This document shows positions 9,951 through 64,000 of a stretch of DNA of 64,000 nt, piece by piece. A program made the position numbers and the translations under genes. This DNA is from an uncultured bacterium (lineage in GTDB: Bacteria; Zixibacteria; MSB-5A5; CAIYYT01): NCBI GenBank assembly GCA_963726455.1, contig CAVSCK010000005.1, forward strand, positions 64,973 to 128,972, in the 5' to 3' direction. The notes under the pieces are model-generated. The model did not search any database. It was not told the DNA's origin and saw nothing but the letters and a program-made list of their open reading frames with translations. Position 1 is the first letter of the stretch. The number at the start of each line of letters is the position of its first letter.

Positions 9951-12872
9951 TCAGGGTTTACAAGGCGCCGGTCCACCGCTGAAGATGTAGGAAATCAGAT
10001 AGACGGCATCTGAGATATCAACCGAATGATCACAGTTGGCGTCACCGGCATCCAGCGGATTCGGCGCCGCGCCACCGGAGAAGATATAGCCGATAAGAAA
10101 GACCGCATCGGAGATGTCGATCCCGCCGCTACCGTCAGCATCACCGGGCACGAACAGCGGTCCTGCCGTGTACAAGTGGGCTGCCGCCCAACGTTTGGCC
10201 TTGACCATGTTACCCTTCAAATCTGCGAGTGTGCCGTCACGCACGGTTGACAGGGCGCTGTAAATGACGATTGTATCCTGTGGCCCGATGTTCCGATTGT
10301 TGATGAAGGTCATGGTGGCAAACTGGTCGGTGGGATTTGTCTCGGGCAAATAACCCGGATTCTGCATCAAGCCGTAAATCTGCACGGCAACGAAGCCGTT
10401 GGTGCCATAGATGTACTGAGAGGAACTGGCCGTAAAGGCACCATAAGGCACTTTGCTAGTGTCAATCACGCCGTCGGCATCGCTAATGCCAAGCAGTGCC
10501 TGTCCCGCAAACCGGCGCGAGCCATCGATACAGTCGAAGCCGCCGCCCTGCTGATATATCATCTTCGTACCGGCATCGAAGCCCCCGACATTTTCCTGAG
10601 GATTGCCGCCGCAGTCCCAGTCGATGGCATCACCGATGCCGATTCCCGTGTGCACGAGGGTATCGAACGAGGTGATTTCGACTCGCTGGATGACGAAGTT
10701 GCAGCTATCGGGATGCTTGGGCGCATACCACGATTTCTTGATTGCAAGGAATTGATCGAGGGTGACGAAAGTGCCGCTCCGGAAGACCTCGTAAGCGCCT
10801 GAATCCGCAGTCGGCGCCATCGGTTCACCGTGGCGAGGCGTGCGGTAGCTATTGCCGTAATACATGTTCCAGTTCGCGGCATACCATGGGCCATTTATGT
10901 AAGTGACCAGCAGCGTGCCGTCCCAAAGATAGTTGTTGACGCAATCGCCCTGACCAAGGTAATCAAGGGCAGCTCCGTACGTGCCTGCCTTGCCGAAATT
11001 GCCCAGATTATTTACGATCAATTTGGTGCAGGATGTGGCGACGGTATCATAGACTTGCACGTTGAAGAGTGCACAGGCGTCGCCAAAGCCATCCCCGTCG
11101 GAATCGGTTTGATCGGGATTGTATACATCGGGACAGTTGTCTATCTGGCACGTTGCTGAAGGATAACCGGGATTACCGAAGCCGTCGGCGTCGGGATCAA
11201 CGCAGTTGTCGCAGGCATCGCCGATGTTGTCATGGTCTATGTCGGCCTGATCAGGATTAGCGTAACCCGGGCAGTTGTCGCAAGCATCACCGGCACCATC
11301 TGCGTCACCGTCGGCCTGGTCGGGATTGGCAACCGCGGGGCAGTTGTCGGTGGCATCGGAAAAGCCATCGCCGTCTTTGTCGAAATCGACGTAGGCGTAC
11401 AGGCGGTCGCCACGGATTGAATCAACTCTGACTGTGATGCCGGTGGGACCATAATAGCCGGCGCTGCTGGGAAATGTAGTCGGACTGAAGGTCGACTGAC
11501 CGGGAACGTTATCGGAGAAGAGCGCGCCTTTGCGGGATTCGTAGGGGTACCACCACTGGGCCGTATCGCTTACGTGTCCACCGGGATTGTTATGATAGTC
11601 ATACGCTGGGTTGTAGCCGGCATCCTCGACCGCGACCGTGTAATGAGGATATGTTGGCGTTCCGTCGTTGATGCGGAAATAATCGGCTTTGAGCGAGTCA
11701 TGGACATGCGTTATTAGCAGCCCGCGATCGAGCGGATCGCAGCCAAGCGACAGGTCGGGATAGAAGTAACAACTGAAATCCGAATCAAACTTGTCGAACT
11801 GTGCCGTCGACTGAGGATTGCGATACTCCAGCATGAAGTATTCCCCCTGCGCCATGTTGATCGGCAGAATGTAATAGGAGCTGTCCTTCGTCGTCTCGCA
11901 GTTGCGAATCATGAGTGATGGATATTCTCGCTGCTCCAACACAGTCGGTGTAATCCAACCGGCCTCTTTCTTGGTCCAGCCGCAGTGATGCGACGGGATG
12001 ATGGACTTGATCGAGAGAATCCCGTAACCGCCATAACCCATTGTGCACCAGTCATAGACCGGATGATCGTTGTCGTCGTTCGGAGTAAAGAAAGTGGAGA
12101 CGGTGAGCTTCTCATCGTAATCGTACAAGTCGGGAACTCCCACGTTGTGTGAGAGCTCATGGCAGAACACTCTGATATAGTTCAAGGTATCAACGCCGGT
12201 AAAGTCGTAGGGGCTGTATGGGTCATGCAAAGGGCAGGTTTCCGGGCAGGTATTCACGCGCGGAAAGCGTTTGCCGTCAAACGGTCCATAGCCGGTACCG
12301 GGTGAGCCGACCTGGGCATATGACCAGATGTCCATCGGATTGTGCGAGTCCTCCTGGCCTCTGCCGGCGTGAATAAATGTGACGGCATCGACATCGCCGT
12401 CGTTGTTGCCGTCAAATTGCGAATAGTCAATTACGGGATTAAGTTCCGCCAAGAGTGAACCAAAGTTGACATAGCCATTGTAGCTGCCTTCGGTGTGCCA
12501 CTCAATCACCTGACCCGTTACAGTCAATTGACCGTATGACGCCTCATGAAAGTAGTCCGCTACGGAACCCATCGGCAACACATTGCGCGAAAAATAGAGC
12601 GTATCGAAGGCGCCGCGAGTCCAGGTGTGGGGGCGGTTGGTCCAGTCGATCAGAATTACGAGTACCTTGAGCGTGTCGCCCGTGAAACGAAATTCGTCCA
12701 TCGACCTTATTTCATCCGGAGTCAGCGTGGACGGGGGCATTTTACCGAATTGCCTCTCCATCACTTCATTGGGTACGTCGAGGATTCGCACCTTCGACAT
12801 GTCGAAGGCGAAGGATGTAGTAGCGACCAATAGACAAGCCAAGGCCACCAGCCCATTAACCATAGATCTCAT
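9951..12872 (-). CDS. secreted M6-family (immune inhibitor A-like) zinc metalloprotease with thrombospondin type-3-like repeats and C-terminal dockerin-like tandem module
   Basis: Signal peptide from ATG 12872 (AGAGGT upstream); HExxH site [19 protein letters not shown]; repeated DxDGDGxxDxxDNCP calcium-binding units; C-terminus [25 protein letters not shown]...[31 protein letters not shown]. Confidence 0.8.
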
Positions 12873-12984
12873 AGGTACCTCTAATTTCAGTGTCGGCAAG
12901 AAGAATGCTGACAGATGTCGATTCTACAAACGGCTGTATAAAGCGCGATTCGGTTAGCTTAGTATACGCAATTTTGGCGAATTT

Positions 12985-42733: not shown

Positions 42734-43723
42734 ATGAGAAGAGCTGTATTGATCGCGCTTGCCATCGTTTCGTTGTCGTTCATCTCATTTCTGACATCGC
42801 CGCAACCCGCCACTGCCGCCGCGATTGTCGCCGATCACACGACGGTCGCGAAGTTCGCGCAGATTCCGCAGGAATATTTCGACCAGATTCGCGCCAATTA
42901 CCGGTTCTTCTATGGCCACACATCTCACGGCAGCCAGATATTGACCGGAATCGGCATGTTGGCGTACGAGTATCCGCTGCAATGCGGCTCGCCGTCATTC
43001 TTCGAGTACGGCGACGATCTTGGCGCCGCCGGAGACATTACCTGGGTGCAGCCGACGCGCGATTTTCTCAATTCCAACCCGGATTACAATGTCGTGATGT
43101 GGTCATGGTGCGGCGGCGTATCCGACAATACTGAGGCCGGTATTAACAGTTATCTCAACGCGATGGAGCAACTCGAAAACGAATTTCCGAATGTCCGATT
43201 CGTATACATGACCGGCCATCTCGACGGCACCGGCGCCGCAGGAAACCTGTATGCGCGGAACAATCAGATTCGCCAGTGGTGTGCCGCAAACGGGAAAGTG
43301 CTTTTCGATTTTGCCGACATCGAGAGCTACGATCCGGATGGCGCGTATTACCCCGACGGCAGCGACGCCTGCGAATGGTGCTATACTTGGTGCGCTACCC
43401 ACACCTGCACTGACTGCGGAGGAAGTTGCGCGCATTCGCATTGTTTCAATTGCTATCAGAAGGCCAAGGCGTGGTGGTGGATTATGGCGCGTGTCGCCGG
43501 CTGGAACACGGATCCGGTTGGCTGCGGAGACGCCAACTCGGACGGTGGCATTGATATCAGTGACGCGGTATTCCTGATTGCCTACATCTTTTCAGGCGGC
43601 CCGGCGCCAAATCCGCTCAATTATGGCGATGCCAACTGCGACGCAGCCATTGACATCTCCGACGCGGTCTACCTGATAAGCTACATCTTCGCCGGCGGCC
43701 CTGCCCCTTGTGCAAGTTGCTAG
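42734..43723 (+). CDS. secreted protein with Cys-rich N-terminal domain of unknown function and C-terminal dockerin-like tandem module
   Basis: Signal peptide; Cys-rich stretch CEWCYTWCATHTCTDCGGSCAHSHCFNCY; C-terminus [27 protein letters not shown]...[32 protein letters not shown]. Confidence 0.6.
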   Translation: MRRAVLIALAIVSLSFISFLTSPQPATAAAIVADHTTVAKFAQIPQEYFDQIRANYRFFYGHTSHGSQILTGIGMLAYEYPLQCGSPSFFEYGDDLGAAGDITWVQPTRDFLNSNPDYNVVMWSWCGGVSDNTEAGINSYLNAMEQLENEFPNVRFVYMTGHLDGTGAAGNLYARNNQIRQWCAANGKVLFDFADIESYDPDGAYYPDGSDACEWCYTWCATHTCTDCGGSCAHSHCFNCYQKAKAWWWIMARVAGWNTDPVGCGDANSDGGIDISDAVFLIAYIFSGGPAPNPLNYGDANCDAAIDISDAVYLISYIFAGGPAPCASC

Positions 43724-46026: not shown

Positions 46027-47856
46027 TTACACCGGCGGGCAGGCAGCGCATGGCACCGGTCCCCCGCCAAATATGTATTGAATAAGGTACACCGCGTCCG
46101 CGATGTCGATCGACTTGTCACAGTTGGGATCCCCGGCTGTGGCTGTGACCGGCGCCGGTCCCCCCGCAAAAATGTAATTTATGAGGTAGACCACGTCGGC
46201 GATATCGACTCCACCGTCACCGTTGGCGTCGCCGCAAGTGAATTCAACCAGAGTAGTCCCCCACCAAGTGCCCCAGCGCGTGTCAGCAGGGTTCGGTCCA
46301 ACCGGTGTCGCCGCATATTCCTGAATCGTCCAGAAGCTGGTGCTATCCTTGGGGTCTACGACTGTGGCACTAAAATCCCCCCAGCGAACCTCAGTTCCGC
46401 CGAAGGTCTTGGTATAGATGCCCTCGCCGGCCTTGATCGTTGCCACGGTGCTCGTCGTCCCGATTGGATCGGTTGACCTGCGGCCGGTGTAAGCCGCTTC
46501 GACAAAGATGTTGGGATTCGAATGCGAGAACCCGAGAAAGACATCATTCCCGGAATTGACTGCAATACTGGGAAAGAACAGAAAGTCATTCGTGCCCATA
46601 TCAACCACGCCCGATTGCACAATCGGATTCGGTAGCGTCGCCGGATCGAGTTCATACCAGAAGACGGAAACGTGGTTGGGAGAATTCACCGGCAGGCCTG
46701 CACTGTGCGTGCACCAAATCCTGCCGTTACGGAAGACGGCATTGAGCATACGCGAATCGTTGGTTGACACCAGTGTGGCTGTGCCCTGTTGCTTGGCGTC
46801 TGGCTGATTATTCGAGAAATTATGTGCTACCGAGAATAACCCCGAGCCGCCAATCGTCGAACCAGGCACAGCGGCCCAAACCGGCGCCGGTCCCGTACCG
46901 GTGATTTGTGTCAATCTGAGGAGAGCTACTCCTCCCGAGGTGAATCCGGCATTATCGACCAGATATAGTGTCGGCTCATTACCGAATGTCTGACAGACGC
47001 GAAGCGCGAAACCTGAACCGACATTGCCGAAATTGTCTGATCCCACCGGAAAACTCGTGAAGGTCAACGGTCCCCCGGCAAGCGCCGTCGATTTTTCAAT
47101 TACCCACATCGACGTTCCGGAGAAAGTATTCCCCGTCACTTTGAACATGTTGGCCGTAATGGCAATCCAGGTTCCATTATACCCGATGTCCGGATAATCA
47201 GCCCAGCTAATGTGCGAGGTGTCCGCAGGTATGCGGTAGAATTTCCAGGTCCCCATCGGATTGGCGCTGTCGCTGACCGCCATCACCACAGCGGAATTCA
47301 CGGTTTGGAAGTCCGCGATGGACGACGCATACCAACGGTTGACGCTCGGGTCGTACAGAACGTGGGGATCACTAACATTGGTCGAACCCGTTGGCGACCA
47401 GAATGTCGGATAGGAGATTGTACTCAGGATATTCCCAAACTTGTCCTGCACCCTGATTTGTGAATTCAGCATCGTCATCACCCGGTTCAGACTTACGGCG
47501 CCGTGCGAATCCGGAGGGATCACGTGAAGGTTATCGGGCAAGGCCTGGAAATTTCTGACTACCGGCGGCACCTGCATCGGCGAAAGAAATTGCTCTGTCC
47601 CCAGACTCCCTGCACTACCCAACTTACCCAGTGGCCCACCAACCTCTCTCGGCGCCGGCATCAGCAATAGCGGTTTTACTTCCTGCACCTCCGCGGTCTT
47701 TGCCAGCGGTGCCCTCGCCTCCATGTTCTCCAAGTCCTGCCAGCTCACCTGAGCTACCGGATCAATCTGCATTTGTTGTCCGGAGACGCCAAAACTTGCC
47801 GCAGTCAGCAACAGTATTAGAACGAGCGTCGCCCGCGACGTTTGCCATATCGACAT
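46027..47856 (-). CDS. secreted protein of unknown function (paralog of 48164-50620) with C-terminal dockerin-like tandem module
   Basis: ATG 47856 with AAGGAG upstream; signal peptide; ~500-aa N-terminal domain shared with the next gene (...RWGDFSATVVDP...WGTWWGTT); C-terminus CGDANGDGGVDIADVVYLINYIFAGG...[32 protein letters not shown]. Confidence 0.6.
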   Translation of the reverse strand: MSIWQTSRATLVLILLLTAASFGVSGQQMQIDPVAQVSWQDLENMEARAPLAKTAEVQEVKPLLLMPAPREVGGPLGKLGSAGSLGTEQFLSPMQVPPVVRNFQALPDNLHVIPPDSHGAVSLNRVMTMLNSQIRVQDKFGNILSTISYPTFWSPTGSTNVSDPHVLYDPSVNRWYASSIADFQTVNSAVVMAVSDSANPMGTWKFYRIPADTSHISWADYPDIGYNGTWIAITANMFKVTGNTFSGTSMWVIEKSTALAGGPLTFTSFPVGSDNFGNVGSGFALRVCQTFGNEPTLYLVDNAGFTSGGVALLRLTQITGTGPAPVWAAVPGSTIGGSGLFSVAHNFSNNQPDAKQQGTATLVSTNDSRMLNAVFRNGRIWCTHSAGLPVNSPNHVSVFWYELDPATLPNPIVQSGVVDMGTNDFLFFPSIAVNSGNDVFLGFSHSNPNIFVEAAYTGRRSTDPIGTTSTVATIKAGEGIYTKTFGGTEVRWGDFSATVVDPKDSTSFWTIQEYAATPVGPNPADTRWGTWWGTTLVEFTCGDANGDGGVDIADVVYLINYIFAGGPAPVTATAGDPNCDKSIDIADAVYLIQYIFGGGPVPCAACPPV

Positions 47857-48086
47857 AAGCTTGTCTCCTTTCATCCCTTTGGACACTTCTCTTGTTATAA
47901 AGAAACCGATTCGCTCCCTCACAGTTCCCTGTGATCGGTTGTCATGAGTCTTTCTGGCTCTACGATTAAGGTACGCGGCACCCTGCCCCATTTGTGGCGT
48001 CTAATTGACCTCCATAAACACAAGTTCCTGGCGGAGTAAGCGGGCTGATTTCTGGGGGCAAGAGGCGATTCTTAAGGGTCTGCGCT

Positions 48087-48123
48087 CAAAAAGAATGCCG
48101 TCCGGAGAGACTCTCCGGACGGC
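48087..48123 (-). terminator. rho-independent terminator downstream of the 48164-50620 gene
   Basis: 13-bp palindromic stem GCCGTCCGGAGAG / CTCTCCGGACGGC; on the minus strand followed by ATTCTTTTTGA. Confidence 0.8.
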
Positions 48124-48163
48124 ATTACAGTCAATGCAGATGTAGGTTATCTAGTATCGTACC

Positions 48164-49020
48164 TCAACAGCCGGCACACGGAGCCGGACCGCCGGAGAAG
48201 ATGTACGCGATCAAGTAGACGGCGTCCGAGATGTCAATTGAATGATCACAGTTGGCATCTCCCGCCTCCACCGGATTTGGTGCCGGACCGCCAGAGAAAA
48301 TGTAGGCGATCAAATAGACAGCATCCGAAATGTCAACGCTGCCACTGCGATCGGCATCACCGCAAACGTAAGGCGGATCGACGACTCTAAGGTTGACCGC
48401 TACTGTGTCTGTCAACGCCGGAGCGCTGCCGTCCTGCAAAGCGATCGAGAAATAGAAGGTAGATTTATAGGTTGGAGTACCTGTGATCGTCCCGACCAGG
48501 CCATCATTAAACGTGAGGCCGTACGGCAAGTCTCCACCGACGAATGACCAGGTGTAGGGTGGAATGCCGCCCGAGTGCAGGAACTGGAATTCGTATGGCT
48601 TGTGATAATAGGCATCGGGCAGAGCTGGGTTCACATGCAGCAGTGGCTCGATGTGCAGGAATCCGTCGCATGCGTCGCCGACGCCGTCCGTATCCGAATC
48701 CCATTGATCATTGTTGCTCACCAGAGGACAATTGTCGCAGGCATCACCAAACAAGTCACCATCAGCGTTCACTTGCGACAAATTGGGCGTATATGGGCAA
48801 TTGTCGACTGCATTCAGAATGCCATCATTATCAATATCGGGATCGCAAACATCACCCAGACCGTCACCGTCAGTATCCTTTTGATTCGCGTTGGCCACTG
48901 TCGGACAGTTGTCGCAGACATCACCGATGCCGTCGTGGTCGGTGTCAAGCTGATTGGCATTTGCCGTCATCGGGCAGTTGTCCACGGTGTCTGCAACTCC
49001 GTCTCGATCCATATCTACCA
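48164..49020. repeat. copy A of a ~850-bp near-identical 3' coding module (TSP3 + Ig-like + dockerin-like)
   Basis: Long runs nearly identical to 51059-51920 when aligned by eye; encoded peptides differ only at scattered positions. Confidence 0.8.
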
Positions 49021-50620
49021 TAGTCGTTCCCCACCACGTGCCCCAACGGCTGTCATCGACGCCCGGACCGACTTTCATCCCCGCATATTCCTGAATGGTC
49101 CAGAAGCTCAGACTATCCATCGGATCTACCACGGTAGCGCTGTAGTCTCCCCAGCGCACGCGTGTGCCACCGAAATTCTTGGTGTAGGTCGACTCACCTA
49201 ATTTGAGCACCTTAATCGGCGCCATGGTGCCCAGCGGGTCGGATGCCTGGCGGCTGGTGTATGCCGCCTGCGCGTAGATCGTCGGATTGGAACGCGAAAA
49301 CCCAATCATCGCATCATCATTGGCATTGGCATTTATGCTCGGGTAGAACAGATATGTATTCGCGCCCTCATCCAGTACGCCCGATTGCACGATCGGATTC
49401 GGCATTGCCGTCGGGTCGAGTTGATACCAGAATACGGCATCGCGATTGGCTGAAGATACCGGCAAACCTGCGGCATGCGTGCACCAAATCTTGCCGTTGC
49501 GGAAGACTGCATTAATGATTCGCGAATCATTGGTTGTGATCTTGGTCGTGGTACCAAGCTGGGACGCATTGAGCATTGAGCCGTTGAAATTATTGGCAAC
49601 CGCGAACAGCCCGGATTCGGCAATAGTGGATCCCGCTGTCGCGTTCCAGACCGGCGCCGGTCCGGTGCCGGTTATCTCAGTTATGCGCAGTTGATGGATA
49701 CTGGAGATCGTGATATTGTTATTGTCAACCACATACAACTTCGGCTCTGAACCGTAGGTCTGACATACGCGCAGAGTCCAACCGTTGAATCCACCGAAGA
49801 TTCCTGATCCCACCGGAAAATAAGTGACTGTCAGTGGGCCGCCCGAAAGCGCTGTGGATTTGTCGACCACCCACATCGCTGGTCCCGCCTGAGATCCGCC
49901 GGCAACCGGAAACATATTTGCAGTCAGCGCGATCCAGGTGTCGTTATAGCCAATGTCCGGATAGTCCGCCCAGTTGATGTTGCTCATGTCTGCCTTGATC
50001 GTGAAGTACTTCCAGACGCCCATTGGATTACCATTGTCCGTCACCGCCAACAGCACTTCTGAACTCGCCGACTCGTAATTGGCGATGGAGGTGGCGTAAA
50101 ACCGCCCTGTGCCCGGATCGAACAGTACGCGCGGATCGCTTAGCGTTGAGGCCCCGACCGGCGCCCAGAATGCTCCGTACGAAATCGTCGAGAGAACCGT
50201 GCCCATGCGATTTTGCACCCGCACTTCGGAATTCAGGAATGTCATGATGTATGAAACACCGACGCCGCCGTCGGTATCGGGAGGAATAACAGCGCCGTTA
50301 TCCGGAATCGCCTGGAAACTTCTCACCACCGTGGGCGCTTGCACATTCTGGCTTACACCTGCGACACTAAGCGCATCCAGAATGTTGTTTTGACCGGTCG
50401 GTTTTGCTATCTCTGTTTCTGCAGGCATCAGCATCAGCGGCGGCACTCTGTGAACCTGCTTTTGCGCCGGCGTCATATTCTGGTCTATGGCCATCAGGTC
50501 ATTCCAGCTCACCGATGCAGCAGGTGACAGAGTCACTCTCTGACCGGTCACAGCCAATAGTGATGTGATTGAGGTCAACGAAAGAAACAGAAATACAACG
50601 AACATTCGCTTTGCACTCAT
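48164..50620 (-). CDS. secreted protein: unknown N-terminal domain (paralog of 46027-47856), thrombospondin type-3-like repeats, Ig-like domain, dockerin-like tandem module
   Basis: Signal peptide [23 protein letters not shown]; TSP3-like DxDxDGxGDxCDNCP units; Ig-like region [21 protein letters not shown]; C-terminus ...[32 protein letters not shown]. Confidence 0.65.
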
Positions 50621-50689
50621 GGCAAAGACTCCTTTCCTGGCACTAGCACCCTAGTTCCGTAATTGCAGTAGATTTCCTTCCGGTCCGTT

Positions 50690-50850
50690 GGCTGCCGGAA
50701 TGGTTTGCGGGCAGACATTGGCGCACGGTAATACTACGCTTGCCAATCAATTATGAAGAACGACATCGTAGGCCTATTCTTGTAAGTAACTAGCACTTAA
50801 GATATACATTTTGTCTTGTTTGTCAAGCCGGATGTCAGCGAAGTGCAGGA
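50690..50850 (-). promoter_or_regulatory. conserved upstream element, copy 1 (shared with 53545-53705)
   Basis: About 150 nt of non-coding sequence upstream of the 50620 start is largely conserved with the region upstream of the 53452 start; contains TTGACA on the sense strand and an inverted repeat ATTGGC-N19-GCCAAT (50716-50746). Confidence 0.5.
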
Positions 50851-50971
50851 CTTGGGAAGCCCTGTGCAAAGCCGCTAAACCCGCAGCGATGGCGCGGAAT
50901 ACTTGTGCGGCATGCCTTCCCCCCGGTGCGCGGAAGACATAGTTACGAGGTGTATGCGATCGAACACCACA

Positions 50972-51005
50972 CTAAAAAAGCACCGTCAGGAACTCTTCCT
51001 GACGG
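50972..51005 (-). terminator. rho-independent terminator downstream of the 51059-53452 gene
   Basis: CCGTCAGGAA / TTCCTGACGG stem; on the minus strand followed by a T-run. Confidence 0.7.
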
Positions 51006-51058
51006 CACAAATTGCGAAAGCCGCGCACAAGCGTGCGCCGCATGCTGGCTCTATCTTA

Positions 51059-51920
51059 TCAGCACCCCGCACATGGCGCCGCGCCACCACTGAAGATGTA
51101 TTGGATCAAGTACACCGCATCCGAGATGTCGGCTGTATGATCGCAGTTGGCGTCTCCCGCCTCTGCCGGGTTGGGCGCCGGACCACCGGCGAAGATGTAA
51201 GCTATCAAATAGACAGCGTCCGAGATGTCGACGCTGCCGCTGTGGTCGGCATCCCCGCAAACGTAAGGCGGATCGACGACTGAAAGAGTGAGTGAGACCG
51301 TGTCTGTCAACGCCGGGACGCTGCCGTCCTGCAGAGCAATCGAGAAATAGAAAGTAGATTTATAGGTCGGTGTACCGGTGATCGTACCGGTCAAACCATC
51401 ATTAAACGTGAGGCCGTATGGCAAATCCCCGCCTACAAAAGTCCAGTTATATGGGGGCGTGCCGCCGGCGTGCAGAAACTGGTAGGTATATGGCTTGTGG
51501 TAGTAGGCATTGGATAATATAGGATGCAGGTTCAGTTCGGGCTCGATGTGTACTGAGTCGTCGCACCAGTCGCCGAGTCCGTCCGCATTTGAGTCCCACT
51601 GATCGTTGTTCGCCAAAAGCGGGCAATTATCGCAGGCGTCGCCGAGGCTATCGGCATCGCTGTTCTCCTGACCCGGATTGACGGCGTACTTGCAATTGTC
51701 GGCGGCGTTAGGCAATCCGTCGTTGTCAATATCGGGATCGCATGCATCGCCCAGGCCGTCGCCGTCGACGTCGTTCTGAGTCGCATTGACCACAGTCGGG
51801 CAGTTGTCACAGGCATCGCCGATACCGTCATTATCGGTATCGAGCTGGTTGCTGTTGGCCAGACTCGGGCAATTGTCAACCGTATCAATAACCCCGTCGG
51901 CATCGAAATCGCCCACAACG
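51059..51920. repeat. copy B of the ~850-bp near-identical 3' coding module
   Basis: See copy A at 48164-49020. Confidence 0.8.
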
Positions 51921-53452
51921 CCGACCTTCAAATTGGCAATCATTGTTGAGGCGCATGACGACGAGAGGACTTTAACTTCCACCAAAGTTGGCGAACCGGT
52001 GTAGGAATTGCTGTTCGGAGCACTGGCCCCGTTAAATGTCTTGTTAATCCATAGATCGCCGGCTTGCGTGGGCGGATTGTTGTCCGCACACTCGATATCG
52101 ACCCAGCGGTGAGTATCGTTCGAGTTATTGTTCTGGGTGTCATCGATATGCCAGATCGCGATTCCGCATCCGGGAAGGTAGGCATCAAAGCCAACTTGTT
52201 GCCGATTCTCTACGAGAAAGTATTGAGTACTGGGCAATACGCTGCTTCTGAGCTTAAAGCATGACTGATTGGTTTCCGCTTGATCGAGATGAACGCCGTA
52301 GGCATTGACTGACGGCTGAGTCACCGGAAGCCAACCTTTCCGGATCTTACACCAGGCACTCATGTGCGCCGGAGATGCACCGTTCTGGCCCGGACCATTC
52401 CAACTTCCTCCCGCCATCAAACACCAGTTGCCGATTCCATCGCTGCTGTAATCAGTGTCATAAAGATCGGGAAGTCCGATGGCATGCCCGTATTCGTGCG
52501 CGAAGACGCCGATCGTTGAACGTACGCCCGACCAGACCATTTCCGGTTCCATGGTGTAACCACTGACCGTCTTGCCGCTCGCCGAGATGGAGGGGGAAAG
52601 ATGACCGGAATGTGACCAGGGATAATTGGTATAACCAGCTTCGGCGCCCGGCCCGACGTGTACGATAAACAGACCGTCTACGATGCCGTCATTGTTGTTA
52701 TCGAATGGCGCAAAATCGACTCCCGCGTCGCGGGCTGCGGTCACGGCCTCGGCGGCCAATATGGCGGCCCGCCCCATCCCGGAGGCATAGCCATAGTAGT
52801 TTCGATTCTGGCTCGCGGTGTAAAATCCTACGACCGTGCCCGTCACCGTGAAGGCATCGTATGATGTCTCCAGATAGAATTTGTGCAAGGAACCCAAATC
52901 GAAATTCGCGCCGTTGAATAACGAGTCGAAATCGCTTGGCGGGTAAGTATTGCCTTCATCCGGATACTTGATGAGAATCACCAGCACGTTGTTTGTCGTC
53001 GTTCTGGTCGCGCGCTGAGTCAGAGTCGGATCATCCGGGAACGAATAAAAGGACGGATCAGGTCTTCCGACCGTACTGGTGGCTGCCAGACTAAGCGGCA
53101 TCTGGGCCAAAAAACTTCTCTCGGCGCCGGATCGCCTGTCCGCCGCGGTGGCTCTGAAATTCGATGCCTTGAGGTTTCCGTCTGCATCCAGAACGGCATA
53201 GCAATACCAGCCGTCAGTATCCCGGGCGACAGTGTATCCGTCCTCGGTAATCATACGTCCGTTTCTTTCATCACCAATGACCCTAAGAGTGAGCTTTGAT
53301 ACTCCGTCCGGCTGGGTCACTTCAAACGCCCGATCGGGATTTGCCGGGACAGACAGCGCAGGTTGAGCAATCAAGACCACGCAAAAGGCCATCATCGTCA
53401 GCAAGTGCCCGAGCATCGGCCAGGCGTGAGCAATAGCGCTTCTCTGCTTCAT
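51059..53452 (-). CDS. secreted M6-family zinc metalloprotease with TSP3-like repeats, Ig-like domain and dockerin-like tandem module
   Basis: Signal peptide; HExxH site [19 protein letters not shown]; C-terminal ~280 aa almost identical to those of 48164-50620; ends ...[32 protein letters not shown]. Confidence 0.8.
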
Positions 53453-53544
53453 CGATTTTTCTCCATTAATATGAAATCATCGTTATTCACCGGGGATAAT
53501 TCTTTCCGAGACATCGAGATGACTGGGTACATCTGCCAAAACAG

Positions 53545-53705
53545 CTCCCGGAATGGCTTGGTCGGACGGACATTGGCGACCAATTATGCTATGCCTGCCA
53601 ATCAATTATGAGGAACGACACAGTAGGTACATTCTCGCAAGTATCTGGTACTTAAGATATACATTTTGCTCCATTTGTCAAGGCAGATGTAAGCGAAACG
53701 CCCGT
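53545..53705 (-). promoter_or_regulatory. conserved upstream element, copy 2
   Basis: Aligns by eye with 50690-50850, including ATTGGC-N19-GCCAAT at 53572-53602 and the TTGACA-containing block. Confidence 0.5.
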
Positions 53706-53810
53706 TTTGCGGTTACAAAGAGAGACCGTCAGACGTGCTCAAGCCACCTGCAACGCGGATAAACCCCGTAGTCATTCACGATCGCGAAAGTGGCGTATGA
53801 ATTTGCCTGC

Positions 53811-56800
53811 CTAACACCCTGCACACGGCGCCGGTCCACCGGCGAAGATGTACTGTATCAGATAGACCACGTCTGAGATGTCCACCGCCTGATCGCAATT
53901 GGCATCACCGGCCGCAATCGGATTCGGCGCTTGCCCGCCGGCGAAAATATACTGAATGAGAAAGACAGCATCCGAGATATCAATTGCCCCGTCACCGTTG
54001 GCATCACCGCAAAGGTAAGTCGGCACAGTTTCGTAGATGGTCAGGAACGTATCAGCAGGAATCGACGTAAATACCCGAACGGTATCAGAAGGCCAGCGAG
54101 CAATCAGAGAGTCGATCATCGTGTTCGACCCCAGTCCGAATGCGGCTATCGGCGGGCTCTGATTCCATCCCCCGGAAACCGTCGTGATTTCGCGAATCTG
54201 CTGCTTGCCTCCAGCAACGATGCGGACTCGCGCTCCGATGCTATTCTTGTTGGATGTCGTGCCGACAAGTTTCGCCTGCAGCCAATGATTATTGTCGCCA
54301 ATCTCGTTTCGAAGGAGCCGACTGCGGCAATTGTATCCGTACATATTCGACAGGTAAATGTCCAGATCGCCGTCGCGATCATAATCGGCCCAGACGCCAC
54401 CCCGACCGGTGCAACCCAAATCGGTAAGAGGATTGATCAGGTTTCCGGTATAGGCCACGGCAAAGTTACCGCTCCCGTCGTTGCGGAAGAGCTTGTTGGC
54501 TTCATTGGAACCGTTCGTTACGAAAAGATCCAAATCACCATCATTGTCGTAATCGCCCCACGCACAGCCCTGCGTGTAATCCCAAGCAGTCATCACGGCG
54601 GGCGTCACGTCCGTGAAGACTCCGTTCCCATCGTTACGAAACAACTTGTCGCTCAGCCCCGACCAGTAGACGGCAACAAACAGGTCGAGATCTCCGTCGT
54701 TGTCATAGTCGCCCCAATCCGCTGCGAAACTATGGGAGGCAATCGCCAGAGCTGGAGGTGTGACGTCGGTAAAGGAGCCGCCGTCATTGCGCAACAGTCT
54801 GTTCGGACCGTTGAAGTTTACGATGAATACGTCGGGGTCATTGTCGTTATCATAGTCGGCCCAAGTCGACATATGAGTACTAAACGTATCTCCCAGGGGG
54901 CCGCTAGTAGCGTCAACGAATGTTCCAGCGCCGTCGTTACGAAACAGCTTATTCGCTGAAGTCAGTTGCGATAGATACAGATCGAGGTCACCGTCCGTGT
55001 CGTAGTCGACCCAGGCGGCACCACTGCCATTGTTAGCATCATTTAGAGGCGCGCTGGAAACATCTGTAAAGGCGCCTCCGCCATCGTTGCGATAAAGCTT
55101 GTTAGCTCGGCTATCGTTGCGGGAGACATAGATGTCGACATCTCCGTCGTTGTCGTAGTCGCCCCAGACTCCGACTATTCCAGTCGCCGCAGCGCCCATG
55201 CTATTTGGAGTAACCTCCACGAAAGAGCCGGCATCATTCCTGAACAGATGGCTGGAGTCCGGGTCGTACATCTGCGTCAGTAGAAGATCGAAATCGTTAT
55301 CATTATCGTAATCCGCCCATGCTGCCGACGAGATTGAGCCGTATCGTGACAAAACTCTGGGAGTGACGTCGTTCCATTCTGGCGGTGCTGAAATGAATGG
55401 AAACGCGGCCAGCAAATTCGGTCTGCCGCCGATGTTCCCAGCCGGAGGCGTGACTTGTGCCGTAGCGGTATTTTTGAGAACCGTGCGCAGAATCGCTGGA
55501 GTGAGGGTCCCGCCCAGTCCGCCGACTCCCTTCCAGCGGCCCACACAGCACGCCACTGCGCCGGCAACAATTGGAGATGCGCTTGACGTGCCCGCGAAGA
55601 CGCTGGTGTATGCGTAATCAGTGCCATCGGCATTGTACAGATCTCCATAACCCGTGGTCACGACGTTCTCGCCCCAACCTTGAAGATCATAGCGAGTGCC
55701 GTAGCTGGCAAACGACAGTCGCTGCAGGTCGCCTTCCACATACGTGCCACCCGGATAAACACCACTTGCTCCGACAACAATTGCTCCCGATCCATTTGGA
55801 TGCCAGTTGAGCATGTCAGTATCATAGGCGCCATTTCCGCCGGCTTCGACCACATGAATCCCGTTTGTTACCGCGTTTACAATGGCGGTGAAGACGGGAT
55901 TCCATGACTGATTGTTCACGTCGCCCCACCATTCTATGGGGATATAAGACCCTCCGCCGTAGTCCCATTGCTGTTCGAGCAGGATAATATCGCCGGCATT
56001 CAGGCTGGCAGTCGCCAGCGCAATGGCGCCAGCAACATTCCAGCTCGGCGTGGGACTTCCATAGTAAGTGCCGCATGTCTTGAGATTCGCACCGTAGCAG
56101 ATTCCGGTAGTGCCCCAGCCGTTATTGTCCGCGACCATAACTCCGATGACGGCAGTCCCATGATCGTCGTCGCTGAAAGGATCGACGACATTGCTGTTTA
56201 TCTGCGACCCCACTACCTTACTGATGTCTGCATGATTGTAGTTCCAGCTATATTCCAGGTCACAGACCGTGACCCCGGAACCGTTACCCCCTGTTTGCGT
56301 CCACGCGTATTGCGCATCAATCCCCACCGGAGCTGAACTCGCCGGACGCATGTATCGCTGGCCGGTGTCATAAGGGGGCGGTATCATCGGCAGCATCATT
56401 GGTTTGGGAACCGGACGCGCCCACATGATTTCGGGTAGAAACTCGAGATCGCGGCAGAGCCCCCAAAGATCATGGCCTTTGCCAAGGCGTAATCGGTAGA
56501 TGTTGTTGAGATTGTACACCGGCTGTCCCGAGTTCTGCTCGCCTACGGCTTGCATCTCATCGAGCTTCTCCTCCGAAACATTGCACGTGCGCTGCCATTC
56601 GACCGGCCCCACCGCGGCAAGCGTGCTCAACACGGAACTCAGGGACCTACCAGTAATATCCACCGGCACTCCCAGTCGTAATCTTACAGTCAGGTATGGC
56701 TCGAAGATCACCTCGATAAGGTCATCTTCATGTCCATATTCTCCGACGGCCTGCCTGCTCACCGACTGCGGCCCGACCGCCAGTGCCTCCGGATCCACGG

Positions 56801-56909
56801 CGATACTATTTCCGAAAGTCGGGGTGATAATCACGAGCCCTACCAGGAACGCCGCCACCAGTGAGCAGACGTGCGGAACTGTTGACCTGCAATTCACAAT
56901 AACCTCCAT
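53811..56909 (-). CDS. secreted S8 subtilisin-like serine protease with FG-GAP/VCBS repeats, ASPIC/UnbV-like domain and dockerin-like tandem module
   Basis: Signal peptide from ATG 56909 (alternative start 57035); S8 triad regions (VTVCDLEYSW, DDDHGTAVIG, GTSSASPIVAG); multiple WGDYDNDGDLDLFV repeats; C-terminus [26 protein letters not shown]...[32 protein letters not shown]. Confidence 0.85.
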   Translation of the reverse strand: MEVIVNCRSTVPHVCSLVAAFLVGLVIITPTFGNSIAVDPEALAVGPQSVSRQAVGEYGHEDDLIEVIFEPYLTVRLRLGVPVDITGRSLSSVLSTLAAVGPVEWQRTCNVSEEKLDEMQAVGEQNSGQPVYNLNNIYRLRLGKGHDLWGLCRDLEFLPEIMWARPVPKPMMLPMIPPPYDTGQRYMRPASSAPVGIDAQYAWTQTGGNGSGVTVCDLEYSWNYNHADISKVVGSQINSNVVDPFSDDDHGTAVIGVMVADNNGWGTTGICYGANLKTCGTYYGSPTPSWNVAGAIALATASLNAGDIILLEQQWDYGGGSYIPIEWWGDVNNQSWNPVFTAIVNAVTNGIHVVEAGGNGAYDTDMLNWHPNGSGAIVVGASGVYPGGTYVEGDLQRLSFASYGTRYDLQGWGENVVTTGYGDLYNADGTDYAYTSVFAGTSSASPIVAGAVACCVGRWKGVGGLGGTLTPAILRTVLKNTATAQVTPPAGNIGGRPNLLAAFPFISAPPEWNDVTPRVLSRYGSISSAAWADYDNDNDFDLLLTQMYDPDSSHLFRNDAGSFVEVTPNSMGAAATGIVGVWGDYDNDGDVDIYVSRNDSRANKLYRNDGGGAFTDVSSAPLNDANNGSGAAWVDYDTDGDLDLYLSQLTSANKLFRNDGAGTFVDATSGPLGDTFSTHMSTWADYDNDNDPDVFIVNFNGPNRLLRNDGGSFTDVTPPALAIASHSFAADWGDYDNDGDLDLFVAVYWSGLSDKLFRNDGNGVFTDVTPAVMTAWDYTQGCAWGDYDNDGDLDLFVTNGSNEANKLFRNDGSGNFAVAYTGNLINPLTDLGCTGRGGVWADYDRDGDLDIYLSNMYGYNCRSRLLRNEIGDNNHWLQAKLVGTTSNKNSIGARVRIVAGGKQQIREITTVSGGWNQSPPIAAFGLGSNTMIDSLIARWPSDTVRVFTSIPADTFLTIYETVPTYLCGDANGDGAIDISDAVFLIQYIFAGGQAPNPIAAGDANCDQAVDISDVVYLIQYIFAGGPAPCAGC

Positions 56910-57113
56910 GCAAATAGACAGTATCACGGTCAATCCGTCCGGCAGACGGCTCGATCGCGTGCCCCTGTAGTAGTTGTTGTCAGCAGAGATGTCGTTGTCT
57001 ATGTTAAAGATACTGCCCTTACGGAGAAATGTCAATTGGAAAAGTGGAGTCGCGGGTACTGATTGCCGGTTCTTCTAACCGTTGATTGGGCATTCGGTTG
57101 CGCTCATAGGCAC

Positions 57114-57170: not shown

Positions 57171-58025
57171 TCAGGTCAGATACGCCCGCAAACTTCGTGA
57201 GCGCGAGGCGTGCCGCAACCTCCTTATGGCTTTTTCTTTTATTTGTCTTACTCGTTCGCGAGTTAAGTTAAAGCGGGCGCCAATCTCTTCCAATGTTAGT
57301 GCCTTCTCATGATTCAGGCCAAAGTATAGATTGATCACCTCCGCCTCGCGGGGAGTAAGAGTGTCAAGCGCTTTTTCGATCTCCACTCTCAACGATTGAT
57401 CGAGTAAAGCTTCATCGGGAGCCGGTTGGAATTCATCCTCGAGCACATCGATCAGGCTGTTGTCCTCGGACACCGAAAACGGCGCGTCCAAAGACAGATG
57501 CGAATTGGAAATCTTCAGAGTGTCGGATACTTCCGCTTCCGAGAGTTCCAGTTCGTGCGCGATTTCCTCCGGCGATGGTTCACGTCCGTATTCCTGCTCC
57601 AACGACGACGACACCTTGCCAATCTTGTGCAACGTGCCGACGCGATTGAGCGGAAGACGAACAATGCGCGACTGCTCGGCCAACGCCTGCAGAATCGCTT
57701 GCCGGATCCACCAGACCGCGTACGATATGAACTTGAATCCGCGCGTCCAGTCGAAACGCTTTGCCGCCTTGATCAGTCCGATGTTCCCCTCGTTGATCAA
57801 ATCCGCCAGCGACAGACCCTGGTTCTGATACTGCTTGGCGACGCTCACCACGAAACGCAAATTGGCCTTGGTTAGTGCTTCCAACGCCGATTGATCGCCT
57901 TCATGGATTCGCTTCGCCAGGCGTACTTCCTCCTCTGCGTCGATCAACGGCGTTTCGCCGATTTCGCGCAAATAGAGGTCCAGCGACCTGTCTTCATCCC
58001 GATACTTTTTGGACTGTCTCGCCAA
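57171..58025 (-). CDS. rpoD: RNA polymerase sigma-70 family factor, short Bacteroidetes-type primary sigma (no region 1.1)
   Basis: 284 aa with regions 1.2, 2, 3 and 4 ([14 protein letters not shown]; [13 protein letters not shown]; C-terminal HTH). Whether it is the primary sigma cannot be proven from this window. Confidence 0.7.
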
Positions 58026-58112: not shown

Positions 58113-59637
58113 CTAATTGGGCTTAATCGCAAAATACTTCACATTGCCTTTGTAATCGTAACCGATCATCGCTATCGCCTTCGTCCGCCCCTGCAACTGC
58201 GACTTGATACGGTCGAAATCACCGGCCGTCTTAATCGTTTCGTGATTGATCTCGAACAGGATCGTGCCGGGCGTAATGCCTTCGATATCTGCCGGACTCC
58301 CCTGATCAACACCAACCACCATTACACCATCGTGGAAGTCAACGCCGTACTGGTCGGCCAAGTTCTGACTGGCAGTCTGTATCGACATTCCCAGCCAACC
58401 GGCATCGACCGACTGTTGATCGTTACGGGTTGGGCGCTGCGGCATCGTTCGCTGGGCCTCTGCCATTCCGGCGTCCCGGTCACCGATCGTGACCTTCACG
58501 TCCGTCGGCCTGCCCTTGCGATATACTTCCAAATCTATCACACTTCCCGAATGTTCACTGGCAACGAGGTAACGGAAATGGTTCTGGTCTTCGACATTGA
58601 CGCTATTGAATTTCGTGACGATGTCGCCGTCATGCAATCCGGCTTGCTGCGCCGGCGAATCCGACCTTACCTGCTCGATCAGCACGCCGCGCGGACTCGG
58701 CAATCCGTTCGCCTCGGCCATGTTGTTGTCGATATCTTTCAGCGTCACGCCCAGCCAGCCACGTTCGACTTTGCCCTTGGTCATCAGGTCGGTCACCACC
58801 GATTTGACGAAGTTAGACGGAATCGCAAAGCCGATCCCCGCCGATTGCCCGGAGGAGGACGCGATAGCCGCATTAATGCCGATCACATAGCCGTCAAGAT
58901 TGACCAGCGGCCCTCCTGAGTTACCAGGGTTGATCGCTGCGTCGGTTTGTATATAGTCCTGAAAATCAGGTGTGTCTTCACCGAAGTTTAGACCCCTGCG
59001 ACCCTTCGCCGATACCACACCCACTGTCACCGTGCGGTCGAGTCCCTGTGATGGGAACGGATTACCTATCGCCATCACCCATTCGCCTACTTTGATCGAG
59101 TCGGAGTCTCCCAACTCAATGTATGGATAACCGCTGCCGGGTATCTTCAGAGACCGCCAGGTCGCTCGCAGCATCCTCGCCCACTATCTTCGCTTTGACA
59201 TCGGAACGATCCGCCAGCGTAATGGTCACATCCCGAGCACCTGCAATTACATGGTGGTTGGTCAGAACATAGCCGTCTTCCCTAAAGAAGAAACCGGTGC
59301 CCATCGACACCTCGCGTGGATTATCACCTTGCCAACCCCAAAACTGCATCCACCGACGCTGCGACGGGGTAAGCTGTTCGACCCGTTCGGCGCGGATGTT
59401 AAGCACGGCATCGCGTACTTTCTCCACCACTCCGACGAACGGTGATTTGCCTTCCTGGGTAATCGGATAGATTGATTTGGGAGCAGGCGTAGCGCGGGCG
59501 AACTGCGTTTGGCTGGCCGCGGTGTTGACCCAACCGGTGTTGCTGGAGATAACAAAGCCGATTACGACACCAACCAATACAAATGACAAGATTACACCCC
59601 AACGTCTAAGCGAGGAATAAACGGACACACCCTTCAC
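58113..59637 (-). pseudogene. htrA: HtrA/DegP serine protease (two PDZ domains), interrupted by one frameshift
   Basis: ORF 59116-59637 has the N-terminal protease half with His (TNHHV); ORF 58113-59174 has Asp, catalytic GNSGGPL and two PDZ domains; frames meet at ...SDLAV / [10 protein letters not shown] near 59150-59165. Confidence 0.8.
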
Positions 59638-63518: not shown

Positions 63519-64000
63519 TCAGCAACCCGCGCATGGCGCCGGACCGCCGGAGAAAATGTACGATATCAGATAAACAGCATCGGAAATATCAATCGAGCCG
63601 TCGCAGTTCACCTCTCCAGTGCTATATGGCGAAGGCGCCGGGCCGCCGGAGAAGATATAGGCGATCAAATAGACGGCGTCGGAAATATCAACCCCGCCAT
63701 CTCCGTTAGCGTCGCCGCAGACTGCGGGACTGCCGACGGTGACGCACGCACCCTGAAACGCCCCCTGATAAGTAAATAAACCGTGCGTGAGCGACTGCGT
63801 GAAGCTGGAATAAACCGTGTCGCGAATGCAGATTTTCTGGTTTTTCAACGCATTAGTAACCTGGAATCTGACTTTGCAAATCACGCCGCTGCCTGCCGCC
63901 AGAGGCGCGTGTCCCCCGCCCATGTTCGCTCTCAGGTCAAGGGTGGCTACCTTGCCGCCGTTGTAGATGTTGCTGAAGATCGCCTGCTCAAAGCCGGCGC
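63519..64000 (-). CDS. C-terminal part of a protein with cohesin-like segment followed by dockerin-like tandem module (5' end beyond window)
   Basis: Frame stays open to the window end (...FEQAIFSNIYNGGKVATLDLRANMGGGHAPLAAGSGVICKVRFQVTNALKNQKICIRDTV...); ends [26 protein letters not shown]...[32 protein letters not shown]. Confidence 0.5.
   Translation of the reverse strand, partial: AGFEQAIFSNIYNGGKVATLDLRANMGGGHAPLAAGSGVICKVRFQVTNALKNQKICIRDTVYSSFTQSLTHGLFTYQGAFQGACVTVGSPAVCGDANGDGGVDISDAVYLIAYIFSGGPAPSPYSTGEVNCDGSIDISDAVYLISYIFSGGPAPCAGC

Follow-up and report, generated by a model that had tools for sequence, protein, structure and literature searches.

Which function is served by a secreted head domain that occurs in bacteria of many phyla and carries no family name? 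The question is raised by an uncultured bacterium of the Zixibacteria lineage (assembly GCA_963726455.1), from which we analysed a stretch of 64,000 nucleotides (nt), here called the window (contig CAVSCK010000005.1, positions 64,973 to 128,972 of the forward strand; all coordinates below are those of the window). Four consecutive genes on its minus strand, here named A to D, are predicted to encode secreted proteins with a C-terminal dockerin. A first-pass annotation, made from the sequence letters alone, had pointed to a domain of about 500 amino acids (aa) common to the N-terminal parts of A and B, and had considered it possibly a new hydrolase fold. We show here that this head belongs to an unannotated and very widespread family, and structure prediction assigns it a known fold, the seven-bladed beta-propeller. 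The array around it is itself ordinary, made up of proteases and further exoproteins that are secreted and share one type of anchoring tag, and the evidence gives no hint of a new principle. The genes and their parts are the following (ORF, open reading frame).

46027..47856, minus strand: gene A, 609 aa; signal peptide, variable N-terminal segment, propeller head, dockerin (ORF list, Pfam, BLASTP)
48164..50620, minus strand: gene B, 818 aa; signal peptide, propeller head, three TSP3 repeats, He_PIG Ig domain, dockerin (ORF list, Pfam)
51059..53452, minus strand: gene C, 797 aa; M6 metalloprotease head of the immune inhibitor A type, TSP3/He_PIG/dockerin tail (ORF list, Pfam, NCBIfam)
53811..56909, minus strand: gene D, 1032 aa as counted from the ATG at 56909, which is internal to a longer TTG-started ORF; S8 subtilase, seven FG-GAP repeats, UnbV_ASPIC, dockerin (ORF list, Pfam)
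46246..47559, minus strand: putative propeller head of gene A, about residues 100-537, by homology to B; nearly all family-invariant residues kept
49022..50323, minus strand: predicted seven-bladed beta-propeller head of gene B, residues 100-533
about 50249-50251, minus strand: codon of residue 124 of gene B
46039..46233, minus strand: type I dockerin of gene A, residues 542-606, with two DxNxDGxxDxxD loops (Pfam PF00404)
48167..49015, minus strand: tail of gene B (TSP3 repeats, He_PIG, dockerin), residues 536-818 (Pfam; similarity to the tail of C)

The head domain of genes A and B

The homology of the two N-terminal regions, on which the first-pass annotation had built its case, is borne out by pairwise protein alignment. 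The shared head spans about 540 aa, BLASTP aligns 554 aa with 54% identity and 72% positives (E=0), the propeller core reaches 61% identity, and the motifs that had been quoted as examples are all present in both A and B. The similarity extends to the nucleotide level, as had also been claimed, in blocks that are 71-74% identical and keep a constant offset of 2770 nt, and the DNA alignment has a mean column identity of 72%. The fold was predicted with an AlphaFold2 model of B residues 1-540, for which an alignment of 46 relatives served as input (mean predicted local distance difference test, pLDDT, 90.6; predicted template modelling score, pTM, 0.90). Residues 100-532 of the model form 28 strands in seven groups of four, that is seven four-stranded antiparallel sheets, and the N-terminal strand 100-106 completes the last blade, the closure expected of a propeller. 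According to the model, the fold is not new: A and B have as their head a standard seven-bladed beta-propeller, about 440 residues long.

The annotation was right that no named family covers the head. Searches of A, B and the propeller region of the 46 relatives against Pfam gave no match at E up to 10, NCBIfam and PHROGs gave none either, and comparison with PDB sequences by phmmer and by profile returned chance matches only. Among the 25 most frequent Pfam matches of the 46 members, none is a family of the propeller region. The head also has no specific relative among solved structures. Compared with generic bacterial seven-bladed propellers, such as E. coli YncE (3vgz), the virginiamycin B lyase Vgb (2z2n), CylK (7ron) and WD40 proteins, it shows only 7-11% identity and no motifs in common. 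Its blades are larger and irregular, with about 440 residues in total, whereas the generic propellers have about 300, and it lacks a match to Pfam Lactonase, YVTN or WD40.

The family is large. A word-indexed search returned 355 relatives with 43-71% identity, which, where named, are called 'hypothetical' or are named after a tail domain (type IX secretion system (T9SS) sorting, TSP3, HYR). A profile search of 1.84 billion cluster representatives gave 6,191 matches at E<=1e-30 and 20,719 at E<=1e-3, the weak end of the latter count being inflated by some tail columns that the profile held. Scanning one genome per species confirmed at least 566 loci in more than 15 phyla, among them Ignavibacteria, Bacteroidota, Planctomycetota, Chloroflexota, Acidobacteriota, Verrucomicrobiota, Myxococcota, Elusimicrobia, Armatimonadota and Zixibacteria. 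On plasmids of cultured organisms, tblastn found homologs that are full-length and 24-27% identical in Streptomyces, in the alphaproteobacteria Polymorphobacter and Bradyrhizobium and in two haloarchaea, Halalkalicoccus and Halocatena; in Deinococcus and Hymenobacter the matches are partial and cover 30-35% of the query. The plasmid homologs are all unnamed or named by accessory domains. The Streptomyces protein aligns with the family profile over the whole domain at an hhalign probability of 99.8%. The family thus counts thousands of members at the level of 50%-identity clusters, from Zixibacteria to Streptomyces and haloarchaea; the profile libraries searched do not recognise it, and genome annotation names its members by their tails only. 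In nearly every listed relative the propeller is N-terminal, the exception being the giant protein P0201, in which it lies near residue 1040; family-wide conservation is absent from the segment that precedes residue 100. Behind the propeller come spacer and anchor modules only: in 41 long members these are Ig-like, cadherin, Calx-beta, HYR, PKD, FG-GAP, DUF11, P_proprotein, TSP3, dockerin and T9SS modules, and none of the 41 fuses a catalytic domain to the propeller. One homolog, 44% identical in the propeller, lies in a metagenome-assembled genome (MAG) labelled Klebsiella pneumoniae (CAMBZJ010000032.1); its label or binning is probably wrong.

The conservation of candidate catalytic residues, a check that the annotation had suggested, was examined in an alignment of 81 sequences with 31-55% identity. 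In this set 21 polar residues are conserved at 97% or more, and they lie at the ends of inner strands: D107, D115, N130, D162, D168, R173, D219, N226, Q354, R374, Q412, N432, Y479, K481, R489, D492, S494, T496, D499, Q510 and Y512. The inner strands of blades 1, 2, 3, 5 and 7 start with an Asp (Asp115, Asp162, Asp219, Asp365 and Asp492, in the motifs PPDT, SDPR, WADY, NDxR and WGDY), and the same five strands end in D, N or R. Hence both mouths of the central channel appear to be conserved. A and B keep nearly all of the invariant set, and most of this polar core is retained even in the 24%-identical Streptomyces protein.

What the head may do

Pfam PF00404 (Dockerin_1) matches the extreme C-terminus of all four products (A 32.3, B 28.1, C 24.1 and D 37.3 bits; gathering cut-off 22.9), both calcium-binding loop and helix segments (DxNxDGxxDxxD) are readable in every tail, and all four N-termini carry a basic and then hydrophobic segment of the signal-peptide type. 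Thus the ORF list, the Pfam matches and the N-termini agree with the annotation that four dockerin-tagged secreted genes stand in a row. Judged by these signatures, the array is a small island of exoprotein genes, each predicted to be exported and dockerin-tagged. What the annotation had missed is that C is an M6 protease and D an S8 protease, and that B and C have an upstream cassette and a tail in common (see below). Gene C scores 207.8 bits against TIGR03296 of NCBIfam (3e-61, cut-off 110.8) and 83.5 bits against Pfam PF05547 (2e-23, cut-off 22), and its translation holds the HExxH zinc motif as HEYGH, which places it in Peptidase M6. Gene D scores 49.6 bits against PF00082 (cut-off 21.8), covering 276 of 288 profile positions, and its translation holds GTSSASP and DDHGT, the latter Asp motif assigned by eye only; it belongs to Peptidase S8. 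Profile scores and catalytic motifs thus make C a regular immune inhibitor A (M6) metalloprotease and D a regular S8 subtilase; as extensions, C has the TSP3/He_PIG/dockerin tail and D the FG-GAP, ASPIC and dockerin modules.

On balance, and with modest confidence, we favour a joint explanation in which this exported, dockerin-tagged island combines the M6 and S8 proteases with the A/B propeller as a further working head. Each product would be exported by its signal peptide, and its C-terminal dockerin would attach it to a cohesin-bearing partner. This step is proposed by analogy to cellulosome systems, in which a type I dockerin attaches a protein to such a partner outside the cell. The propeller, which in this family stands nearly always in front of spacer and anchor modules, would then act on a polymer outside the cell. 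Invariant residues that surround the channel mouth would form its active centre, namely the ring of Asp115, Asp162, Asp219, Asp365 and Asp492, which Arg367, Arg489, Tyr479, Gln354 and Asn130 would join. As catalytic carboxylates or metal ligands, the prime candidates would be the W-A/G-D-Y motifs that blades 3 and 7 have as a pair. We infer, tentatively, that the displayed propeller is most likely a hydrolase or lyase. An enzyme is favoured because the invariant polar core is dense, because the propeller of B fills the slot that the M6 catalytic domain occupies in C, between a common promoter and leader and a common tail, and because all other identifiable dockerin-tagged heads in the window (M6, S8 and SGNH-like) are hydrolases. 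A bolder claim would make the head the catalytic domain of an unrecognised and extremely widespread enzyme family, with the five-Asp ring as its centre and a common environmental polymer as its substrate; this is possible, if rather doubtful. If true, it would define a new enzyme family, for example of glycoside hydrolases, polysaccharide lyases or phosphoesterases, with thousands of members that are presently labelled by accessory domains only.

Several observations weigh against an enzymatic working head. The hydrolase activity proposed by the annotation is supported by no result, and likewise no substrate or cofactor has been shown. The Asp ring can be purely structural and bind an ion in the central channel, as in hemopexin-type propellers. 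The placement of residues on the top and bottom faces rests on strand order, not on model coordinates. His124 of the motif IPPDTxGAVGPNH is present in at least 90% of the members and invariant in a divergent set. In B this residue is Tyr and in A it is Arg, and Tyr or Arg also stands there in the nearest relatives of A and B and in the Streptomyces homolog; His124 is therefore unlikely to be an essential catalytic base, and we rejected it as a firm candidate. The genomic context gives no functional hint: an all-against-all BLAST of the ORFs at 83 loci revealed no recurrent neighbour family, and the 116 nearest neighbours match 142 different Pfam families, of which the commonest, the T9SS tail, occurs five times. 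Three individually inspected gene contexts are unrelated to each other. Neither guilt by association (83 loci, 116 neighbours) nor guilt by fusion (41 long members) gave a lead to function.

The main rival to the enzyme reading is a non-catalytic binding head, lectin- or adhesin-like, that would be held out on a surface stalk to catch polymers, particles or other cells, with no turnover of a substrate. The modules fused to the propeller are of the adhesin type (Ig, cadherin, Calx-beta, HYR, FG-GAP, TSP3), the family has no link to catabolic gene clusters, tandem propeller paralogs occur in about 10 of the 83 loci, and the structural matches are generic, all of which would suit a binder. However, conservation is very strong for such a protein, with 43-55% identity across phyla and the 21 invariant polar residues, the blade-to-blade sequence repeat of multivalent lectin propellers is missing, and in B the propeller sits in the slot of a catalytic domain. 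We regard a binding head as somewhat unlikely.

A divergent Asp-box propeller (sialidase/BNR, GH33/GH74-like), acting as a glycosidase on acidic sugars, seems improbable to us. The catalytic propeller of GH33 has six blades and combines an Arg triad with a nucleophile pair of Tyr and Glu and an acid/base Asp. Like the Asp-box propellers of GH33 sialidases, GH74 and Vps10, the head is irregular and predicted to be extracellular. It has several invariant Arg, Tyr and Asp residues, which may or may not correspond to those of GH33, and one Asp-box-like hairpin, TSDPTGxW, lies in the equivalent loop from one outer strand of blade 2 to the other, where Asp-boxes sit. Many sialidases and neuraminidases are among the Foldseek matches, with E of about 1e-6 to 1e-5, but the template modelling (TM) scores to sialidases are only 0.28-0.38, and the head has seven blades instead of six. 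Pfam BNR and BNR_2 do not match even at E=10, and the strict Asp-box, S-x-D-x-G-x-T-W (Quistgaard and Thirup, 2009, PMC2716378), occurs neither in A and B nor in the family consensus, where we find one loose motif only. Asp198 of this hairpin differs in the A/B subclade, as do Pro122 and Phe161.

Still harder to sustain is a scheme in which the propeller works with the neighbouring proteases, by substrate feeding, by gating or as a new peptidase, so that the four genes form one proteolytic unit. A and B do adjoin the M6 and S8 genes, the promoter and leader cassette is common to B and C, an S8 gene lies next to a propeller gene in a related contig, and a P_proprotein domain is found in a few family members. 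Yet no protease recurs as a neighbour in the 83 loci, the locus between Fpg and rpmG that holds B's closest relative has no protease in its vicinity, and we know of no peptidase family with a propeller as its catalytic domain. The annotation's own view of a new hydrolase fold, which could appeal to the lack of any sequence family matching the head, is refuted at the fold level by the propeller model and hardly deserves credence.

With its invariant polar core and its constant outermost position, the head offers a concrete target for biochemical screening. A single assigned activity would bring annotation to a large share of the proteins that uncultured bacteria of soil and sediment have outside the cell.

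Duplication, probable head swapping and the layout of the array

Did A and B arise from each other in place, as the annotation had concluded? In a neighbour-joining tree, A is sister to a clade of B and three metagenomic proteins, which are 71-73% identical to B in the core and hence closer to B than A is. One of the three, P0002, is encoded by a single gene between Fpg and rpmG-MFS, which is the site of A and B; in the window, the start of rpmG (L33) lies about 130 nt past gene A. A single propeller gene at the same rpmG-MFS site implies that the pair arose by duplication there. We therefore regard A and B as probable paralogs from a duplication at this site, and a tandem origin is plausible; the 61% identity of the cores and the separate branches of the two copies speak against the simple form of the claim. 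From this divergence the duplication appears to be old or the genes fast-evolving, and not recent. In a more distant relative the gene order is GH35-like, HtrA, sigma-70, S8/FG-GAP/ASPIC/dockerin and propeller, without an M6 gene; the S8 gene of this related contig is an ortholog of D with identical architecture.

Genes B and C are related in a different manner. Their heads, propeller and M6 protease, are unrelated to each other, and they are framed by two common parts: a tail and an upstream cassette, the latter being present in only two copies in the window. The terminator-like sites of these two genes are given here as well.

50708..50842, minus strand: promoter-like TTGACA-N16-TATCTT and leader upstream of B, cassette copy 1
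53563..53697, minus strand: the same promoter and leader cassette upstream of C, copy 2
48094..48126, minus strand: terminator-like hairpin (intrinsic type) after B, stem of 15 bp and T-run
50980..51008, minus strand: terminator-like hairpin (intrinsic type) after C, stem of 13 bp and T-run

The cassette of about 150 nt consists of TTGACA-N16-TATCTT and a leader of about 115 nt, and its copies are 79% identical over 135 nt (about 85% over about 150 aligned columns). The TSP3/He_PIG/dockerin tails (283 aa; 48167-49015 and 51062-51940) are 78% identical in amino acids and 82% in nucleotides over 300 nt. On this comparison, B and C are best read as heads swapped on a common promoter-plus-tail chassis, and the exchange would be later than the A/B duplication. 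The chassis offers a small, clear example of how exoproteins may be assembled by head swapping. The leader has no match in Rfam, and its core does not recur exactly in metagenome contigs. Nine matches of the promoter core in such contigs all look like chance, lie in unrelated AT-rich contigs and were set aside. The pair of TTGACA and TATCTT is seen upstream of D (57007-57035), C (53654-53681) and B (50799-50826), all on the minus strand, and the site of D lies directly downstream of a sigma-70-family gene (57171-58025). The total of promoter-like sites in the region is not above shuffle expectation.

The annotation had also given each of the four genes its own terminator. Among them, convincing hairpin and T-run sites are found 3' of B and C only; the stretches after D and after A fold no better than shuffled sequence, which speaks against terminators there. 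A GGAG-type ribosome-binding site precedes A, B and C, in gene A as AAAGGAG 8 nt upstream of the ATG at 47856. Further along the window, an HtrA/DegP-type protease (trypsin domain and two PDZ domains) is split over the overlapping ORFs 58113-59174 and 59116-59637 on the minus strand, which suggests a frameshift, either by sequencing error or in a pseudogene.

Dockerin tails in the window and their counterparts

The dockerin tag is not special to A to D but common in the genome. A motif scan finds it in at least seven genes of the window, which include three others.

42734..43723, plus strand: dockerin-tagged secreted protein, 329 aa, SGNH/GDSL-hydrolase-like head
9951..12899, minus strand: dockerin-tagged protein of 982 aa with TSP3
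63519..64000, minus strand: dockerin-tagged gene cut by the window end, last 159 aa visible

The tail of the 329-aa protein is of the same type as those of A to D, and its model superposes on the type I dockerins 2ccl_B and 5m2o_B at 1.3-1.6 A. The 982-aa protein was considered as a propeller relative and rejected, its dockerin being the sole matching part; for its N-terminal region, about 500 aa long, neither Pfam nor the PDB sequences gave a match.

Like the type I dockerin enzymes of Firmicutes cellulosomes, the proteins of the window end in a dockerin of about 65 aa that holds two calcium-loop repeats. In contrast to these enzymes, their heads are proteases, SGNH-like or unknown domains and not plant-cell-wall enzymes, and their tails have conserved Cys at the start, in NCD and in a terminal PCxGC. 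Six complete tails can be compared (A to D and the 329-aa and 982-aa proteins): CGDA opens five of them, the second repeat has NCD in all six, and four end in PCAGC or PCASC. As exceptions, the tail of A has PCAACPPV, and that of the 982-aa protein starts with VPGDAD and ends in PCKP. This Cys pattern suggests that disulfides may form in the tails; to our knowledge it is not typical of clostridial dockerins. The closest named homologs come from Zixibacteria MAGs.

A second comparison is with T9SS cargo. Propeller homologs of Bacteroidota and Ignavibacteria carry the sorting domain Por_Secre_tail (PF18962) at the place where A and B have the dockerin, whereas A to D are without a T9SS domain. 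The same alternation is seen in the family of the SGNH-like head of the 329-aa protein, with both tags occurring within Zixibacteria. From this pattern in the sequences, dockerin and T9SS sorting domain appear to be interchangeable anchoring modules. Across the relatives of the propeller and SGNH-like heads, some tails are dockerins, others are T9SS sorting domains, which FlgD_ig often accompanies, and others again are of no recognised type.

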